Shown: positions 35,836 through 45,238, counted from the stretch's first letter. The stretch is DNA of 60,728 nt from an uncultured Candidatus Peribacteria bacterium (GCA_964547365.1 CAZJMP010000001.1:1-60728); one strand, 5' to 3'. A program made the numbers and translations. The notes: generated from the letters alone by a model not told the origin.

Positions 35836-38800
35836 TTATGCAGCAGGTGTAGCTGGTGGAGGTACTTGTATTGTAGGAGCCTGCTGTGGAGTAGGTTGAG
35901 CTGTCGGTGCTGAAACAGCTGTTTCTTCTGATCTTTTTTCCGTTATCGGTACGTGCGGTGCTTCCAATTTCGGTTGAATCGCTGCGACTTTCTCTGCTTC
36001 CGCTGCGGCTATTTTTTCCGCTTCCGTCTGTTCAGGCAGTTTAGTCTCATCCGTAGTTATGCCCAATCTCGCTTCCATCTCTGCATCTACGAATTCTCTC
36101 TTCCTTCCATATTTTTTTGCTGAATATTCTTTGAGGATAGGTACAATTTTTTTGTTCTGATAATCTTTGGTATAGATCATATTCATGCTGAATGCACGTG
36201 TAGTTGCGTTATCGATATTTAATTTGATATATGCTTTATAGTTCGCGATACCTACGATATCTTCCTGTGAAAGCACTGGTGCATATTCTTTTTCCAAGAA
36301 TTCCGCATCGGGTGCACCCACTTTGAATGATTGCATCGTACCCACGTTACCGAATACCGCTGCTTTAACATCGTTTTTTCCTCCTCCTACATCGCCCAAT
36401 CATTTTGGCGGTTCGAGCTGAGCGATATATTGGTGAGCCATGATGAGTGAAAGTCTGTATTTTCTCGCTTCTGAGAGGATATCTGCGAATGTTCCCGAAA
36501 CGAAGTTCTGGAATTCATCCACATAGAGAAAAAAGTCTTTTCTATCTTTTTCTTCCATTCTCGCTCTTGCCATTGCTGCGGTATAGATTTTTGATACGAT
36601 GATCATACCAAGCAAGTTCGCGTTCAATTCACCGATCTTACCTTTGCTGAGATTGATGATGAGAACTTTTTTGTTGTCCATCACGTCTTCAAATTTGAAA
36701 GCTGATTTTGTCTGTCCGATGATGTTCCTGATCAATCTATTCGTATTGAACGATACAAATTTTGCTGAGAAGTATGGGATGATCTCTTGTTTCTCTCTGT
36801 CTCCCATAGCATTGAATGTTCTATCCCGCCGATTCTTTACGGTAGGGTTCGTTATCTTTTTGATCTTGTATTCCCTATATCATTCATCCGTGAAGAGTCT
36901 TACAACATCCAAAAGCGTCGGTCTGTCCTCGAAGTCTTCAAGTAGTGTCAGTGATCAGTATTTGAAATATTCTTGCAATCTCGGACCGAAGATCTCTGGT
37001 CAGAACATTTTGATGAATATTTCTGTGGCATCATTGACGACTCTATCTGCCTCATCTAAGATATTGATTTCAAACATATTCAATCCCATAGGTCTTTCTT
37101 CATCGCCTGCATCAAAATAAATCACGTCTTTTGCTCTCTCTTTTGGAATATATGCCAGCATATCTTCCGCGAGATCTCCATGCGGATCTATTAGACAAAT
37201 TCCATCTCCATTTCGTATATCTTGTCTCGCTATCGTCTGCAAAAATACGGATTTTCAGGTACCTGATTTTCCTATACAGTAATGATGTCTCATCCTATCA
37301 TCTCTTTTCATATAGACGGGTGAGAGCGTATTTCTGAAGATATTCGTTCCTATGAGGATCGCATCTTTGAAAAGCTTATATCCTAGACCTTTTTTTTGTA
37401 CTACCGTTTTTACGAATTTCTTTCCATCTTTTTCGATGATCTCTTTCCCGATGAGATCTTTTTCTGTATATTTCTCTATCGGATCAAGAATTTCTTCGTT
37501 GCGCATTATTTCGCCGGTTGCTCGATGCTTGCTGTATTCCTGGAGAATGATATCAAGTTTACCTCATTTGTAACTTTCTGCCAATACTCCTCACATAACA
37601 TAACCATTCGCTTCTTTAGGAATAGGAAGATTCTCAGGAGCAGGAAGTACCTTGTATTGCATCCAAGAAATGATAGGAGAACGGTTATATGTTGCATCAG
37701 GGAAATGAAATAATGATGTGAGTTCGTTTATTCCGAAAGTGTTTTTTTTGAATCAGAATCTTGTGATGAAATTATTTACTGCAACTTTCCATAATGGTTT
37801 CAAAAGCCATCAGAATAAGTCTGTTTTTCCTTGCGGTTCTATCAATTCATTTCCGTATTCGTCTCCGTAGATGGTTAACGAACTTACCACTAAATCCATA
37901 TTCTTCTCTAGATTTTCCTTTTCGTCGGAACTTGTGGTGATCAACATTCATGAATTGAAAAACGGTAGTGCTGATTCCTCTCCCATTGCATTGAGATAGT
38001 CTTCTTTTGCTTTGACCATACGCACCATGGTTACCGTTTCTTCTTCTTTCTTGTTGCTCAAGAGTTTTTCGCTCGGTCCATGGATGAGAAATCCTATGAG
38101 TTTCCATGGCATGATAAAATATGTCCATCGTGCATTGCTTGTTCCGCGAAGAGAAAGGTTCTTGTAAAGTCTATCTACTGCTTTTTGTGATTTTTTATTG
38201 AATCGATCTCCCAATGGTTTGATTGGAATGATAATGCTTAGGGTGTCATATCTTGAAATCTTTCCGATAGAATCGATGATATTGTTCATCGGATCATCCG
38301 GCTGCTGTTTGAAAGTCTTGATGTTGTAGAGCTGGTCTCTTTTTGGTTCTATAGGTATCACATCTGTATATCTTTTTTTGAAAAATTTTGGTTTGCTTGT
38401 CCTTTCTATCGAGCAATTAGGGAATTGCGCTGAAATAGCTCCTTCTAGCACTTGTTGATATTCTGGATACGTTCCTATGATAAAGTTGAGCTGTCATTCT
38501 TCATAATGGTAAATCATTGTCGTTTTCGGTTTATCGAAAATCTTTCTCATCAGATTCTCTTTCATGCTAAGTGCTCAGATTTTATGAAAATTGTGAAATA
38601 CCAACGCCATACGTCATATTTTTTCTTTCATGTCTTTTGCTAATTCTTTTTCTTGTTCACGGTCTAGTTTGCTTTGTCCTCTTGGAAGCAATATCTTGAG
38701 ATAAATAATCCTTCACGAATTGAAAACGTCGTAGAAGAATCTCAGCATATTCTTGATGATAATAAGCAATATGAGTGTCCCTATTGTAATCAATACTCCG

Positions 38801-39150
38801 TTTAGCGCGTATTGTCCGTATTCTGTCACTATTGCTTTCCGTCCTGTTTCTGTGCTAGTACTTGCTGTCACTTGTGTTTCTTTTTGGTCTTTTTCGCTTG
38901 GTGTGGTTGTGAATCACGGTCCTGTCGTACTTACTGGAGGAGTATAGTTTTTATGTAATAGGAAATTCTTGATTTGTGTCGTACCTCCCATGAGTTGCAT
39001 ACAAGTAAGTTTATTGGTCCCTCGTGCATTGCTGGTCAATTGAGAAATATTCTCCAAGGCTGCTGGATTTTTATTGTATGCGTTCTGTATCTGTTGCTCA
39101 CACATTCCTAATTCCATACTTTGTTTAGCTGAAAGATTAAAGCCCGCCAT
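35836..39150 (-). CDS. VirD4/TraD-like coupling-type P-loop ATPase, membrane-anchored paralog (about 1104 aa)
   Basis: Seven track ORFs between 35836 and 39201 lie in one frame. TM helix NGVLITIGTLILLIII, YLKILLPRG.. N-domain, GKSGTGKS-type P-loop region, LIDPHGDL, YVDEFQNF, ARKYRLSLIMAHQ. Pro/Ala/Gln-rich tail. ATG at 39150 (alternative TTG at 39201). Confidence 0.75.
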
Positions 39151-39291
39151 GGCGGATAAACTTTTAAGCTTCAAGCTTGTGGCTTTTGGCTTATCAGTCA
39201 ATTATAGCCGGAAAAACTTCTTTTGTATAAAAAAAATGGCTTTTGGATGCTTGATCTAGGCCATTTTTTGTAAAATAGTATATAATAATGG

Positions 39292-40853: not shown

Positions 40854-40886
40854 TTGTTTTTTGTTTCTATTTATCTTATCATTTCT

Positions 40887-42305
40887 ATGAATTTAACACT
40901 CAAAACATATATCAACGACAAGAAACTTGTTGCTAAGGATGTCGTGAAAGGCTGCATGGAGAAAGCAAAAACATTGAATGCTGACTATTTTTCCTTTGTG
41001 AGATTCCATGATGACTATGTAGCTGCCCATCTCGACGAATTTGCTTCGAAACCGTTGAAGGCTGCACCTATTTGAATTAAGGACATTATTCTGACTCAAG
41101 AGTATATTACTTCATGCTGATCGAAAATACTTGAAGAGTATGTAAGTCCGTATAGCGCTACCTGTTTTTTGAACTTAGAGAAAAACGGAGGATTGATGAT
41201 CGGAAAAACGAATATGGACGAATTTGCGATGGGTTCCTCTACAGAAACATCATATTTCGGCAAGACGAAAAATATCTACGGAAAAGATAGAAGCCCTGGA
41301 TGAAGTTCTGGATGATCTGCGGTTGCTGTCGCTTCATGAGCGTGTTTAGCTGCATTGGGAACTGATACCTGAGGAAGCATTCGTCAGCCTGCTGCATGGT
41401 GCGGTATTGTCTGAATGAAGCCTACCTATGGTATGGTTTCTCGTTATGGCGTACAATCTATGGCTTCGAGTCTAGATCAAGTTGGTGTCTTTACGAACAC
41501 TGTTGAGGATGCAGAGATCTTATTGAAAGCCATAGCTGGATTCGATCCAAAAGATTCACAGAGTGATCCGAGAGCGGATGAATTTGTAAATTCAGAATTC
41601 AAAATTCAGAGTTCAGAGATAAAAAAATTTAAAGTTTGAGTGCCGAAAGAAGCATTAGGAGAATGATTAGACCCTCAAATAAAGGCATTATTTCTTGCAA
41701 CTATTGATAAACTTCGTGCAAACGATATTGTAGTCGACGATATCTCATTGCCGATGATGGCGTATGCTGTTCCCATGTATTATACTTTGATGCCTGCGGA
41801 AGTAAGTACGAATTTGGCGAGATTTGACGGTATCAAATACTGACTTCAGTCTGATAGCCTGAATGCTGATACTATACAAAAATATTATGAAAACATTAGA
41901 TCCGAATGATTTGGTGATGAGGTCAAGAGAAGGATATTGCTCGGTACTTTTGTTTTGAGCTCAGCTAACTATGAAGGATATTATCTCAAGGCTCAGAAGG
42001 CAAGAGAGGAGTTGCAGGCAGAGTTTGACAAAACATTTGCAAACTATGATATTATTCTTACACCTACTACACCTGAGGCAGCATGGAAGCTCGGTGCAAA
42101 AAATGACGATCCTTTGAAAATGTATTTAGCTGATATGTACACTATCCCTGCCAATATGGCGTGATTGCCAGCCATGTCTGTTCCTATGGGTATGGTTGAG
42201 GATCAAGGGGAAAAGCTACCTGCATGAATACAACTTATGGCAGATAAGCGAGCTGAGAGCAAGCTTTTCGGGTTTGGTTGTTATCTCGAAAAATTACTTG
42301 CGTAA
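40887..42305 (+). CDS. gatA: Glutamyl-tRNA(Gln) amidotransferase subunit A
   Basis: Amidase signature [18 protein letters not shown][G]SSG[G]SAVAVAS (TGA at 41301 and 41313), GTDT[G][17 protein letters not shown]. Confidence 0.95.
41588..41618. repeat. Heptamer array inside the gatA coding sequence
   Basis: aaattca gaattca aaattca gagttca gag encodes [11 protein letters not shown] in a variable GatA linker. Confidence 0.85.
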
Positions 42306-42399: not shown

Positions 42400-42411
42400 A
42401 ATGAATACTAT

Positions 42412-42473
42412 GGGTGATTAGCTCAGTTGGCTACCCCGCAGCGAGTGCGGGGCTCGTTCCACTCGGAGCGTTT
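42412..42473 (+). other. Pseudo-copy of the tRNA-Val 5' part (nt 1-30) with a 32-nt insertion in the D-loop
   Basis: GGGTGATTAGCTCAGTTGGCTA (identical to tRNA-Val 1-22), then 32 nt (42434-42465, containing hairpin ccccgca-gcgag-tgcgggg), then GAGCGTTT (tRNA-Val 23-30). The 5' leader tactat is also duplicated. Confidence 0.7.
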
Positions 42474-42492
42474 TGAAAGATTATATTACTAT

Positions 42493-42569
42493 GGGTGATT
42501 AGCTCAGTTGGCTAGAGCGTTTGCTTGACGTGCAAAAGGTCACAGGTTCGACTCCTGTATCACCCACCA
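42493..42569 (+). tRNA. tRNA-Val (anticodon GAC), CCA encoded
   Basis: GGGTGAT/ATCACCC acceptor, TTTGC-TTGACGT-GCAAA anticodon arm, ACAGG-TTCGACT-CCTGT T arm, ACCA 3' end. Confidence 0.9.
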
Positions 42570-42615
42570 TCAAATCTGGCTTACTACCAGGTTTTTTTTG
42601 TTATTTTCATGTTAC

Positions 42616-42643
42616 TTGACAAATATGCTTCAATAAATATAAT
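42616..42643 (+). promoter_or_regulatory. Consensus promoter
   Basis: ttgaca, 16-nt spacer, tataat. Confidence 0.5.
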
Positions 42644-42674
42644 CGCATCTCTATTTTTATATGTTTTGCTTCTT

Positions 42675-43535
42675 ATGATGAAGAAAAAAGATTCTTTATC
42701 TCAGCAACATGTCGAGGATATATGATTTGAACATTCTTCAGATTCAGGCATGCTTTCAAAAAAAGATAAACTTTCTCGTAAACAAAATTTGATGAAGCTT
42801 TTTTTGACTTCAGATATCAAGAATACAAAATTATGGAAACCACTTCAGTCTGTTAAAGAAAACATGATCAAAAATTTCCATGATTGAGGCTTTGATTCTT
42901 CAGATGTAGATAAACTGTTCCGGATATATTTTAATGAACATAAGGATGTATTCATACCAAAACACCTCAAGGGACGTATTACTCATTTCAAGGTATTTGT
43001 TTCTCAAATGCCTAATAACACTAAGCTTGCTCTCCATGAATATCTCTATGTTCTTAGTAATGTGAGGAAACAAATAGATGATTTTATAGTTGCTATAGAA
43101 CCACTGAAGAAAGCAGCTCATGATTATGCAAATGTGGAAATGAAAGAGGCTTTGGAAGAAGATATCTATACTGACTTTGATCGTGATGCTAAACAACAGC
43201 AGTATCGTGCTTTGGCTAAAGCGAAATTCTCTGATCTTATGCAAGCGTCGCCAGATGTATCTTATGATCGAGATCGATTCCAGCAGGGAATGTCTGTATT
43301 GCCAGATACACGACGTCTCAATACTTATAAGGATCTTACTGTTTTCGCTTTGTTAGGATTTCATTATTTTGATAAAAAAGATCTTGTATATTCTACTTTC
43401 TCTGATCAGCAGCTTGAAGAGGAACTTGTCTTTGATTTACCAAAATACCAGCCTGACAAGGTATCGCTCACTCTTGAAGAATACCTTCATCTCATAGAAA
43501 AACTCGATTTCAAGAATAAAGCATTTTCTTTCTAA
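42675..43535 (+). CDS. Hypothetical protein (286 aa)
   Basis: The frame of track ORFs 42525.. and 43008.. is continuous through two TGA codons. Start set at MMKKK, downstream of the promoter. Confidence 0.5.
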
Positions 43536-43554
43536 AAAACTTTTTATATAAGGT

Positions 43555-43596
43555 AAAGCCGCTCAAATAGAAAGAAATTCAGTGAGCGGCTTTTTA
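43555..43596 (+). terminator. Intrinsic terminator
   Basis: aaagccgctca..tgagcggcttt hairpin plus T's. Confidence 0.55.
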
Positions 43597-43627
43597 ATGT
43601 TTGGCTGATGTCATAATGAAATTTTTT

Positions 43628-44038
43628 TTACACTGGTTTAACAATTACTTTTACCGTTTGTAATTCATCCAAGAGGATGCGTTCTTTACCCACGGGTAGT
43701 GGAGCAGGAATCTCAGCAAGGAAAACAAATGTTTTCCGCGGCTTCTTCGTCTCTACAATTCCGAAGAAGTAGGTTTTCCCCCAATGGATCTGTCCTTCGA
43801 AGATTTTTTGCGGATCCATTTGCTTGAATGTTTCAGGATCTGATGCTTTAATCTCCCTGTAGATGCTGAATCCATTGATCTTAGTATTAGCAGGATGGGT
43901 GATGTAGATTTCTTCCAGGCTTGAGACATGCCATCCTAATTTTTTTGTGATTTCAAGCAGTACCTGCTTTTTTGCATCTTTTTTGATGTTGCGGGGAATC
44001 ACTATCCCGCTGCCTGCTGTTGAAACAAAAATTTTCAT
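43628..44038 (-). CDS. Hypothetical protein (136 aa)
   Basis: Intact ORF with no TGA codon. Confidence 0.5.
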   Translation of the reverse strand: MKIFVSTAGSGIVIPRNIKKDAKKQVLLEITKKLGWHVSSLEEIYITHPANTKINGFSIYREIKASDPETFKQMDPQKIFEGQIHWGKTYFFGIVETKKPRKTFVFLAEIPAPLPVGKERILLDELQTVKVIVKPV

Positions 44039-44134
44039 TGGTAACCTCCTTTTGGGTCGTTTTGATGGTTAGACATTTGTTTTTGTTAACTTCATTACTG
44101 ATAATCAGTTTTTCCTTGAAAACAAGGGAAAATT

Positions 44135-45001
44135 TTAAGATACATATTTCGTATATGTATTTATATTTTTTCGTATTTTTTCTGGAGTGAGCTTTTGTAG
44201 CTTGCTGATTAGTTTAGAATCTTCTAATTCTTTTTGCTCTATGGGAATGGTGATGCCGTCTATTGTCTTAAAATCCTTGATGTGTAAAGAAAATGGACAT
44301 CTCGCCAATTTTCCTGGAGGCGTATTGCTAGTATCTAGGATGATCGCTCATTTTCTTCTTTCGTGTCCTGCTATAACATTCAATTTCGTCGATTCACTGA
44401 CTTGTTTCGCTCGTTTGGTAGGAAAACTATCTTCTTTGCCTTTGCCGTAACTCATGTGTGTATCATAAAAATCATGATCCACTGCTGTGTTCAATAGGAT
44501 GTAGATATGGAAACTTGCTCCTGTTCGGAGAATTAATGTTTTGTAGGAAACAAGCTTCGTGAATAATTTATCAGAAGAAATTATTTTTATCAATTCACAG
44601 GCTACTTTTCTCGCATCGTCCGCTGAATTTGTCTGTCTATCAATATCGATGAAGATCCTGTCGATGATGTTTCAGAATTCATTGTTGCAGGCGTAGAAAA
44701 AATTCACCAATTTTCTTGGGACAAAATATTGTCGTAGCAAGACTTGTTTTGGTGTGAGTTGTTCTTTGACTTCGTCTAAGTGATGATCAGCTCTGAGTTT
44801 CAGATAATGCTCATCTATTTCTTTGAAATCTTTGATGTATAATGGTTCGTTTTTTGTTCCTCTTTTGAGGAGTATAAATCTTTCGCCTATGATCTTGCTG
44901 GCGATTTCTTTTCATTTCAGTATCTTGTCCAGTAAGGGAGCGACTTTGCTATATCGCCCTAGAACGTCTAGATTTTTGTAAGGATGAAGAAAATCCTTCA
45001 T
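44135..45001 (-). CDS. Archaeo-eukaryotic primase (AEP/PriS-like) superfamily protein (288 aa)
   Basis: AEP motifs in order: IFIDIDR (DxD), GASFHIYILL (sxH), ILDTSNTPPGKLARCPFSLH (hD..R.P.S.H). Three TGA=Gly codons. In frame with track ORF 44348..44593. Confidence 0.6.
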
Positions 45002-45041
45002 GGATTATCTATGCAATAAAAAATTCCTAGCATATTATGTC

Positions 45042-45123: not shown

Positions 45124-45136
45124 ATGTATAATTGAA

Positions 45137-45204
45137 GCCTATCGTGGTGTATACCAACCTTGCTAAAGCAAGGCCCTGCTTCAGCAGGGTTCCACCACGA
45201 CGGC
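45137..45204 (-). other. Pseudo-copy of the tRNA-Leu 5' part (nt 1-26) with a 32-nt double-hairpin insertion in the D-loop
   Basis: Minus strand: GCCGTCGTGGTGGAA, then ccctgctgaagcaggg and ccttgctttagcaagg (32 nt, 45158-45189), then TTGGTATACAC, then CACGATAGGC, which pairs back to the 5' end. A further hairpin gcccgctatagcgggc lies at 45210-45225. Confidence 0.7.
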
Positions 45205-45238
45205 TTGTTGCCCGCTATAGCGGGCAGATAGCTGGTGA

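Follow-up and report, generated by a model that had tools for sequence, protein, structure and literature searches.

The stretch of DNA analysed here, hereafter the window, is the 60,728-nucleotide sequence CAZJMP010000001.1:1-60728 of assembly GCA_964547365.1 (genome G000), which comes from a bacterium of an Absconditabacterales (SR1) genus that reads TGA as glycine (genetic code 25). Our subject is a block of some 2.5 kb at positions 42570 to 45041, in which the 3' ends of tRNA-Val and tRNA-Leu both point at three open reading frames (ORFs) that we name P0001, P0002 and P0003. P0001 is an archaeo-eukaryotic primase (AEP), and the evidence assembled below leads us to regard it as probably a chromosomal accessory gene of archaeal type, domesticated in one SR1 lineage and with a presumed role in repair, rather than as the relic of a mobile element. 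An earlier reading made from the sequence alone (the sequence-only reading) had described the two facing tRNA genes, ORFs of 286, 136 and 288 amino acids (aa), a consensus promoter proper to the first of these, AEP motifs in the last, and the use of TGA for glycine in both; the following features, with the ORFs read under code 25, bear out each of these points.

40854-42305 (strand not given): gatA, with 13 in-frame TGA codons
42327-42400, + strand: tRNA-Arg(gcg), found by ARAGORN and Rfam
42406-42486, + strand: pseudo-Val, a copy of the tRNA-Val 5' part, exact over 28 nt (6 nt of them leader), whose D-loop holds a 32-nt hairpin insert
42493-42569, + strand: tRNA-Val(GAC), found by ARAGORN and Rfam, the left border of the variable region
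42616-42643, + strand: sigma-70-type consensus promoter of P0003 (TTGACA, 16 nt, TATAAT; 12/12 matches)
42675-43535, + strand: P0003, hypothetical and fast-evolving, 286 aa with 2 TGA codons, convergent with P0001 and P0002
43555-43593, no strand assigned: hairpin, G+C-rich and with T runs, that separates the convergent P0003 and P0002 (-17.8 kcal/mol, z -2.7), likely a two-way terminator
43628-44038, - strand: P0002, hypothetical, 136 aa with no TGA codon, co-directional with the AEP gene and 96 nt downstream of it
44135-45001, - strand: P0001, stand-alone LigD-polymerase-like AEP, 288 aa with 3 TGA codons
45041-45124, - strand: tRNA-Leu(CAG), found by ARAGORN and Rfam, co-directional with the AEP gene, whose start lies 39 nt downstream
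45125-45211, - strand: pseudo-Leu, the 5' part of tRNA-Leu (19-nt exact copy) with a 32-nt double-hairpin insert in the D-loop (fold z -4.4)

That TGA is a sense codon in the window is clear, because gatA holds 13 such codons in frame.

P0001 is a true AEP by its motifs, its profile links and its fold. The protein has 186 homologs at E <= 1e-3, and in the family alignment, which comprises 50 homologs, the three AEP motifs (as defined in passages of the LigD review PMC8656161) stand out as invariant columns. Both aspartates of motif I, I-F-I-D119-I-D121 (hhhDhD), and the whole of motif II, S163-F164-H165 (sxH), are conserved in 50/50 homologs, the latter aligning with the motif II region of the Mycobacterium tuberculosis LigD polymerase domain (2IRU). 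Motif III, I-L-D223 (hD/E), is likewise invariant and aligns with the 2IRU segment that holds its motif III (Asp227 in the numbering of the review). It is followed by L-A-R234-x-P236-F237-S238-x-H240, of which R234, P236-F237-S238 and H240 are invariant. R244 of the M. tuberculosis domain, which binds the incoming nucleotide, aligns with H240, and R234 lies six residues earlier. The pocket for the 5'-phosphate in polymerase domains of non-homologous end joining (NHEJ), defined together with synapsis loops 1 and 2 in sections of PMC8656161 and formed by Asn13, Lys16 and Lys26 in M. tuberculosis, falls where the N-terminal alignment to 2IRU is too weak (4.6 bits) for its residues to be placed; as that alignment has it, both lysine positions are unconserved, with lysines one position off.

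The link to known families runs by way of profiles. The Pfam family LigD_Prim-Pol (PF21686) is matched by 20 of the 50 family members at E <= 0.01 (best E 6.4e-9), and a distant relative, P0227, is a true member of PF21686 (73 bits) to which the family aligns by hhalign with a probability of 97.5% (E 7.7e-12) over 227 columns, all motifs being in register. A first family profile (A1) found nothing significant among PDB sequences, and a broader one gave a single significant match, namely the M. tuberculosis LigD polymerase domain 2IRU, with the motifs aligned (E 1.4e-4). P0001 has no match to PF01896 (PriS), and a search for longer, fused forms of the family, which is weak evidence, found none.

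An AlphaFold2 model of P0001 (mean pLDDT 91.0, pTM 0.89) contains the AEP core fold, an (alpha-beta)2 unit packed on a unit resembling an RNA recognition motif. When this model was compared by VIA-align with 48,161 PDB representatives, the top 11 matches were all AEPs (Z 8.8-15.8). They are headed by the LigD polymerase domains of M. tuberculosis (2IRU; Z 15.8, root-mean-square deviation (rmsd) 3.7 over 230 aligned residues) and Pseudomonas aeruginosa (2FAO; Z 15.8, rmsd 3.6 over 231), the Prim-PolC of Mycobacterium smegmatis (6SA0; Z 15.5, rmsd 3.5 over 231) and the NHEJ polymerase of Methanocella (5DMU; Z 15.1, rmsd 3.7 over 231). Eukaryotic and archaeal PriS structures score Z 10.7-12.9, CAPP Prim-Pol 9.6, cyanophage PrimPol 8.8 and human PrimPol 6.5. 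Foldseek, used as a second search, placed LigD and Methanocella polymerases in its top 9 positions (E 3e-7 to 2e-6) and returned 22 matches at E <= 1e-3, those listed being AEP prim-pols. The comparison with PriS, PrimPol and LigD polymerase that the sequence-only reading had proposed is thus answered in favour of the last (Z 15-16 against 11-13 for PriS): as modelled, P0001 belongs to the structural class of LigD polymerase and Prim-PolC and is nearer to these than to PriS.

Within this class P0001 differs from each of the characterised enzymes. It resembles the bacterial LigD polymerase domains (Rv0938, 2IRU/3PKY; 2FAO) in fold over ~230 residues, in motif register and in size (~290 residues), yet it stands alone instead of being fused to a ligase and a phosphoesterase, shares only 12-15% identity with them, has a short SFH as motif II where the 2IRU alignment has SGxxGxH, carries an invariant His in place of Arg244, and resides in a host in which neither Ku nor an ATP-dependent ligase was detected. 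The mycobacterial Prim-PolC (5OP0, 6SA0) is also a stand-alone LigD-polymerase-like AEP, with a nearly equal structural score. Prim-PolC fills short gaps in excision repair without Ku, according to portions of PMC5663958 and PMC7442782, and acts with the ATP-dependent ligase LigC, as parts of PMC5663958 describe; in contrast, no ATP-dependent ligase was detected in the hosts of P0001, and the two are not orthologous, the family profile having failed to reach Prim-PolC by sequence. The NHEJ polymerase of Methanocella paludicola (5DMU), described in parts of PMC4797286 as belonging to an NHEJ pathway, is archaeal, stand-alone and of the same fold, and its arrangement of separate phosphoesterase and ligase genes recurs at some archaeal loci of the P0001 family; it nonetheless belongs to a different sequence family, since the P0001 family profiles give no HMMER match to it. 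PriS shares the superfamily and the three motifs, but P0001 lacks the PF01896 match and a PriL partner, and its hosts possess another primase: a separate PriS-type gene in the carriers among DPANN archaea, DnaG in the bacteria.

The distribution of the family is predominantly archaeal. When 1.84 billion representative proteins were searched exhaustively with a profile, 109 came up at E <= 1e-3, so the family is small and sharply bounded. Among 185,579 species genomes (one per species) 89 loci contain a relative, and the best 80 of these 89, which we retained, divide into 67 archaeal and 13 bacterial loci, all 13 of the latter being of SR1/Absconditabacterales type. The archaeal carriers bear at least 9 different phylum-level labels and include Pace-, Woese-, Nano-, Micr-, Iain-, Aenigm-, Parv- and Undinarchaeota, Hydrothermarchaeota and Methanomicrobia, a divergent member occurring in a metagenome-assembled genome (MAG) of Methanocella. 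A LigD phosphoesterase gene lies directly upstream on the same strand at 4 of the 67 archaeal loci (gap 27-33 bp) and within 8 kb at 6, and an ATP-dependent ligase gene lies directly downstream at 2 of the 67 (gap 36-38 bp). Other archaeal neighbours are mostly housekeeping genes (ribosomal proteins S7 and S12, EF-2, Kae1 and an Obg-like GTPase). Related functions were sought in five DPANN carriers, of which one is a complete chromosome: a separate PriS-type gene is present in 5/5 at E <= 0.01 (2/5 above the Pfam cut-off) and Ku above the cut-off in 0/5, from which it appears that in archaeal hosts too the family is an extra, Ku-independent AEP. The commonest neighbour of the archaeal AEP is a gene of 120-170 aa matching PF18894 ('putative phage metallopeptidase'), found within 8 kb at 22 of the 67 loci and, in Pace- and Woesearchaeota, often next downstream on the same strand; its product could be a functional partner of the AEP, for example in the repair of DNA-protein crosslinks.

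In bacteria the gene is confined to a narrow group. It is present in 15 of the 29 other genomes of the window's genus and in only 1 of 111 genomes from 42 other genera of the family (G160), and it was found in 0/16 genomes from other families of the class. Its position is largely constant: of the first 14 carriers examined, 13 have gatA or RuvB on one stretch with the AEP (both in 7/14), the fourteenth being a 4.7-kb contig, and in G160, despite its different genus, the gene again directly follows tRNA-Leu(CAG), at a distance of 31 nt. G018 and G023, which are the two most divergent species, carry it on the opposite side of tRNA-Leu. Ten genomes of the genus that lack the AEP were examined, of which 7 have a contiguous gatA-to-RuvB stretch without the gene and 3 are broken at contig ends. 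A search of the empty sites for decayed AEP remnants gave nothing significant, the best match (E 0.095) falling inside an SLH-domain gene. In AEP-less G002, at the expected place just past RuvB (L119 9343-9459), a non-significant tblastn match (36% identity, E 0.36) that spans AEP residues 17-52 may be such a remnant.

A tree of the flanking housekeeping proteins intersperses carriers with non-carriers, so that 7 changes of state are needed, at least 6 of them forced by well-supported branches, and carriers occur on both sides of its deepest split. In the AEP tree all 14 bacterial rows fall into a single clade (SH-aLRT 99), which lies in a 20-row group with 6 Pace-/Nanoarchaeial rows (support 99), itself inside a 24-row group (97). 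By our reading of the trees, branching within the bacterial clade broadly follows the housekeeping tree. Since the bacterial AEPs are monophyletic and broadly follow the species tree, patchy presence fits loss better than repeated insertion. Amino acid identity is 62-90% within bacteria, 32-98% within archaea and at most 58% between them. Rough dN/dS estimates, most dS values being near saturation, are 0.06-0.15 for the AEP, 0.03-0.11 for gatA, 0.01-0.05 for RuvB and 0.23-0.40 for P0003, and suggest that the AEP is under purifying selection about as strong as that on gatA; strong purifying selection in turn implies that the gene is useful where it is kept. Moreover, the bacterial orthologs contain 2-4 TGA codons each, most of them on columns that are glycine in archaea (67/67, 62/67, 60/67 and 57/67), with one TGA position common to 12 of 14 orthologs. 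This agreement provides independent cross-domain evidence that TGA encodes glycine in these bacteria. Taken together, the distribution, the site, the trees, the divergence, the selection and the recoding point to one old acquisition followed by long residence and about six later losses.

The repair genes of the hosts were surveyed in 41 genomes, namely G000, another 24 from its genus and 16 that represent other families of the class. G000 has dnaG (above the curated cut-off, with 7 TGA codons), whose presence the sequence-only reading had named as a point to check, and the NAD-dependent ligase LigA; Ku, ATP-dependent ligase, LigD phosphoesterase (LigD_N), the Pol I polymerase domain and Y-family polymerase were not found in it. 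Across the survey Ku was found in 0/41 genomes and ATP-dependent ligase above the cut-off in 0/41; neither a canonical NHEJ pair of Ku and ATP-dependent ligase nor a fusion of the AEP to ligase or phosphoesterase was detected. The Pol I polymerase domain (PF00476) is present in 0/25 genomes of the genus and in 5/16 from other families. Among the remaining 11 of the 16, in which Pol I was likewise not detected, several genomes are 99-100% complete. In the genus a Y-family polymerase occurs in 1/25 genomes and a B-family polymerase in 1/25, the latter a contig-edge fragment without TGA codons; the X-family palm domain (PF14792) was found in 0/25, a weak negative given that the probe performed poorly in control genomes. 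P0001 is not the replicative primase, as the host has dnaG and all five DPANN carriers have a separate PriS-type gene; it lacks the PF01896 match of PriS and is not the only primase in its genome.

The account that we consider probable runs as follows. The ancestor of one Absconditabacterales genus and of a neighbouring genus would have acquired the AEP once, from a DPANN archaeon resembling Pace- or Nanoarchaeota; the gene would have settled beside tRNA-Leu(CAG), been recoded to the TGA-glycine code, and then been inherited vertically under purifying selection with some six independent losses. The enzyme itself, to judge by its conserved residues, is probably catalytically intact: D119, D121 and D223 would hold two divalent metal ions, while S163, H165 and the R234/H240 pair would hold the incoming nucleotide. 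Its fold, its motifs and the partner genes seen in archaea suggest a two-metal nucleotidyl transferase acting on gapped or broken DNA. It would extend 3' ends across short gaps or at sites of damage, possibly with ribonucleotides, and the host's NAD-dependent LigA would then seal the nick, with no need of Ku or an ATP-dependent ligase. Given that neither Ku nor an ATP-dependent ligase was found in the tested carriers of either domain, we take Prim-PolC to be the best functional analogy, and by this analogy a role in Ku-independent gap-filling repair is likely.

Several observations weigh against parts of this account. Taken alone, P0001 scores below threshold against LigD_Prim-Pol (PF21686; 15.5 bits, cut-off 27.4, E 0.013) and has no match among PDB sequences, and the histidine at the position of R244 means that its catalytic chemistry may differ from that of the M. 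tuberculosis domain. The archaeal link to repair is partial, with the phosphoesterase adjacent at 4/67 loci and the ligase at 2/67, and neither of these genes nor the PF18894 gene is present at any of the 13 bacterial loci. The AEP is evidently dispensable, because it has been lost about six times in the genus and seven empty sites are verified. Among 20 public sequencing runs listed for the stretch, none that contains it is an RNA run, and the DNA runs that contain it bear bioreactor and wastewater labels. Additionally, G000 is a MAG (1.2 Mb, 84% complete), as are its relatives, and absences from these genomes mean 'not found'. A strict replacement of Pol I by the AEP was considered and rejected, Pol I being missing in carriers and non-carriers alike. 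Rooting is the remaining difficulty. We used three P0227-type sequences as outgroup to 64 archaeal rows, having dropped three long-branch archaeal rows beforehand. In the free tree the bacterial clade stays among the archaeal rows; however, a tree constrained to keep the 64 archaeal rows in one group, which puts the root on the bacterial stem, survives the approximately unbiased (AU) test and has the higher score (p-AU 0.58), and the same constraint with ten divergent family members added gives p-AU 0.73. Since both AU tests leave a root on the bacterial stem unrejected, the case for an archaeal origin rests on distribution, archaeal diversity and native partner genes, and not on the rooted tree.

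On those grounds the family is very probably archaeal in origin and was transferred to bacteria. The opposite course, by which it arose or long resided in Absconditabacterales and then spread to DPANN and other archaea, could call upon the constrained trees, with their outgroup on the bacterial stem and their higher likelihood, and upon the general abundance of LigD-type polymerases in bacteria reported in sections of PMC8656161. We nevertheless judge it improbable: bacterial carriers are limited to 2 of 43 genera in one family, with 0/16 in other families of the class, whereas archaeal carriers span the phylum-level range described above and fall to a minimum identity of 32%, against 62% in bacteria; operon-like partner genes occur only in archaea; and with an outgroup that is ~22% identical to the family and odd in composition, long-branch attraction in the outgroup trees is likely. 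A different origin was envisaged by the sequence-only reading, which saw in the three genes an islet, either a domesticated or decayed element or a host-adapted replication gene, and held that the partial tRNA copies might share its history. Host adaptation stands, by virtue of the TGA codons, the G+C content and the purifying selection, and is joined by horizontal acquisition, but the mobile-element islet finds no support. We think it quite improbable that the block is what decay has left of an integrative element, phage or plasmid which entered at a tRNA with its own replication primase, even though the AEP directly follows the 3' end of tRNA-Leu(CAG) in G000, G008 and G160, and even though the stretch between gatA and RuvB, whose content varies among species, is a variable hot spot. 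A Pfam scan of the 11 neighbouring ORFs (a HerA/TraG-like ATPase, DUF7544, DUF5652, NUDIX, RuvB, an SLH protein, a metallophosphoesterase and four without a Pfam match) found no integrase, as that reading had noted, nor any other mobile-element gene. The att-like direct repeats that it suggested seeking are also missing: no direct repeat of at least 19 nt brackets the block, and the best cross-block repeat (18 nt, 83% identity) lies at two start-codon regions. G+C content is host-like across the block, without a step. Searches of 2.9 million viral contigs (IMG/VR), 50,697 phage records (INPHARED) and 72,556 plasmid records (PLSDB) turned up no member of the family, and P0001, P0002 and P0003 have no matches in PADLOC, PHROGs or NCBIfam. 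The archaeal relatives of the AEP sit among housekeeping genes, its dN/dS is as low as that of gatA, and P0002 and P0003 occupy the site independently of it. Of the hallmarks of a genomic island, then, the locus has patchy presence with empty sites, and lacks integrase, att repeats and mobile genes; the comparison of synteny, although it revealed AEP-less sites in 7 of 10 genomes without the gene, fits loss better than repeated insertion.

The partial tRNA copies, which we call pseudo-halves, are real and have been counted in favour of an integrated element, being present on only 2 of the 24 tRNAs of the genome, the two that flank the block. However, they are 5' parts, each lies exactly 81 nt upstream of its own tRNA, at the 5' side and outside the block, and pseudo-Val also occurs in AEP-less G005, as well as in G010 (100% over 72 nt), G003 and G012, with a compensatory change in its first hairpin. 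Of the genus loci searched, only those of G000 and G008 yielded pseudo-Leu. The 32-nt inserts are not dispersed repeats in the genome, and an Rfam scan recognised the three tRNAs only, with nothing on the pseudo-halves. Lying outside the block and persisting where the AEP is missing, they are independent of its history, unlike the possibility that the sequence-only reading had raised. In G012 the 3' end of tRNA-Leu(CAG) is present a second time, T-arm-like part included, ~85 nt downstream of the tRNA itself and before the AEP (L026 2207-2442, - strand); this copy looks like an att scar, in keeping with a decayed element, and may mark the tRNA as a hot spot of integration. An ancient entry by way of a tRNA-targeting element is conceivable, given that the AEP directly follows tRNA-Leu(CAG) in two genera, and no trace of such an element remains at the locus.

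As regards function, a mainly primase role, whether in PrimPol-like re-priming of stalled forks or as a second primase beside DnaG, strikes us as rather unlikely. Many proteins with the AEP fold prime de novo; the R-x-PFS-x-H segment after motif III resembles the PriS signature; P0227, the nearest outgroup, falls just short of the PriS Pfam cut-off (26.7 bits against 26.8); PriS structures match at Z 10.7-12.9; and the hosts are nearly without translesion polymerases, as seen in the single Y-family gene among 25 genomes of the genus. Set against this, the structure is nearer to LigD polymerase and Prim-PolC (Z 15-16) than to PriS, with human PrimPol at Z 6.5, there is no zinc-finger, helicase or PriL-like partner domain, the LigD-polymerase match covering the whole 288 aa, and the operon-like partners of the gene in archaea encode enzymes that heal and seal ends. 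Still less probable, to the point of being very doubtful, is a polymerase of non-canonical end joining with lineage-specific Ku-like or ligase partners such as P0002 or P0003. Its best structural matches are indeed NHEJ polymerases, and P0002 is the co-directional gene immediately downstream of the AEP in the window and at the loci of G008, G010, G013, G004 and G050; yet Ku and ATP-dependent ligase above the cut-off were each found in 0/41 genomes, the 5'-phosphate pocket residues of NHEJ polymerase domains could not be confirmed in P0001, and P0002 and P0003, which have no family, defence or structure match, are both missing from many carriers and present in non-carriers.

In its most far-reaching form, the preferred account would see here a lineage that has shed Pol I along with almost every accessory DNA polymerase, and that has domesticated a prim-pol from DPANN archaea of its own habitat as the only non-replicative DNA polymerase of the cell, filling gaps perhaps with ribonucleotides and relying on LigA for sealing. 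An archaeal repair enzyme would then have been joined to the replication and repair machinery of a bacterium, and the family would constitute a previously undescribed Ku-independent AEP clade in which His replaces the canonical nucleotide-binding Arg. This is a possibility that we advance tentatively and would not expect to hold as a whole. The acquisition would be a clean and datable instance of gene flow between DPANN archaea and the candidate phyla radiation (CPR/Patescibacteria), both ultra-small episymbionts, involving a gene of DNA metabolism; exchange between DPANN and CPR is reported for other genes in parts of PMC12455944 and PMC5370408. With ~109 representatives, Ku-independent in both domains and carrying His at the Arg244 position, the clade is compact enough for biochemistry, and it raises the question of how Absconditabacterales that lack Pol I fill gaps and whether the AEP helps them to do so. 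We found no publication on this AEP family in the literature on Absconditabacteria primases, AEPs in DPANN or LigD in DPANN.

The two other ORFs of the block have histories of their own. P0002 is lineage-specific and occurs without the AEP in G002; its family profile matched nothing significantly in Pfam or PDB (best E 0.044, a SANT-domain protein). P0003, likewise lineage-specific and with 4 database homologs in all, is present in AEP-less G002 and G019. Because P0003 and P0002 sit at the site in genomes without the AEP, the three ORFs are not one unit, a point against their arrival as a single islet from a mobile element. Compared with G008, its closest relative, the window shows a synonymous divergence of 0.20-0.35 in the three genes of the block and of 1.19 in gatA, several other neighbours being 96-97% identical in protein; this contrast suggests that recombination replaced gatA (and orf183) in one lineage. 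Further upstream, the window encodes a protein of 1121 aa (35836-39201, - strand) with weak matches to coupling ATPases of the HerA, TraG and TrwB type. Its gene lies next to a DUF7544 gene in relatives too; given this conserved pairing, the protein probably belongs to a core DNA-translocation or secretion system rather than to a mobile element.

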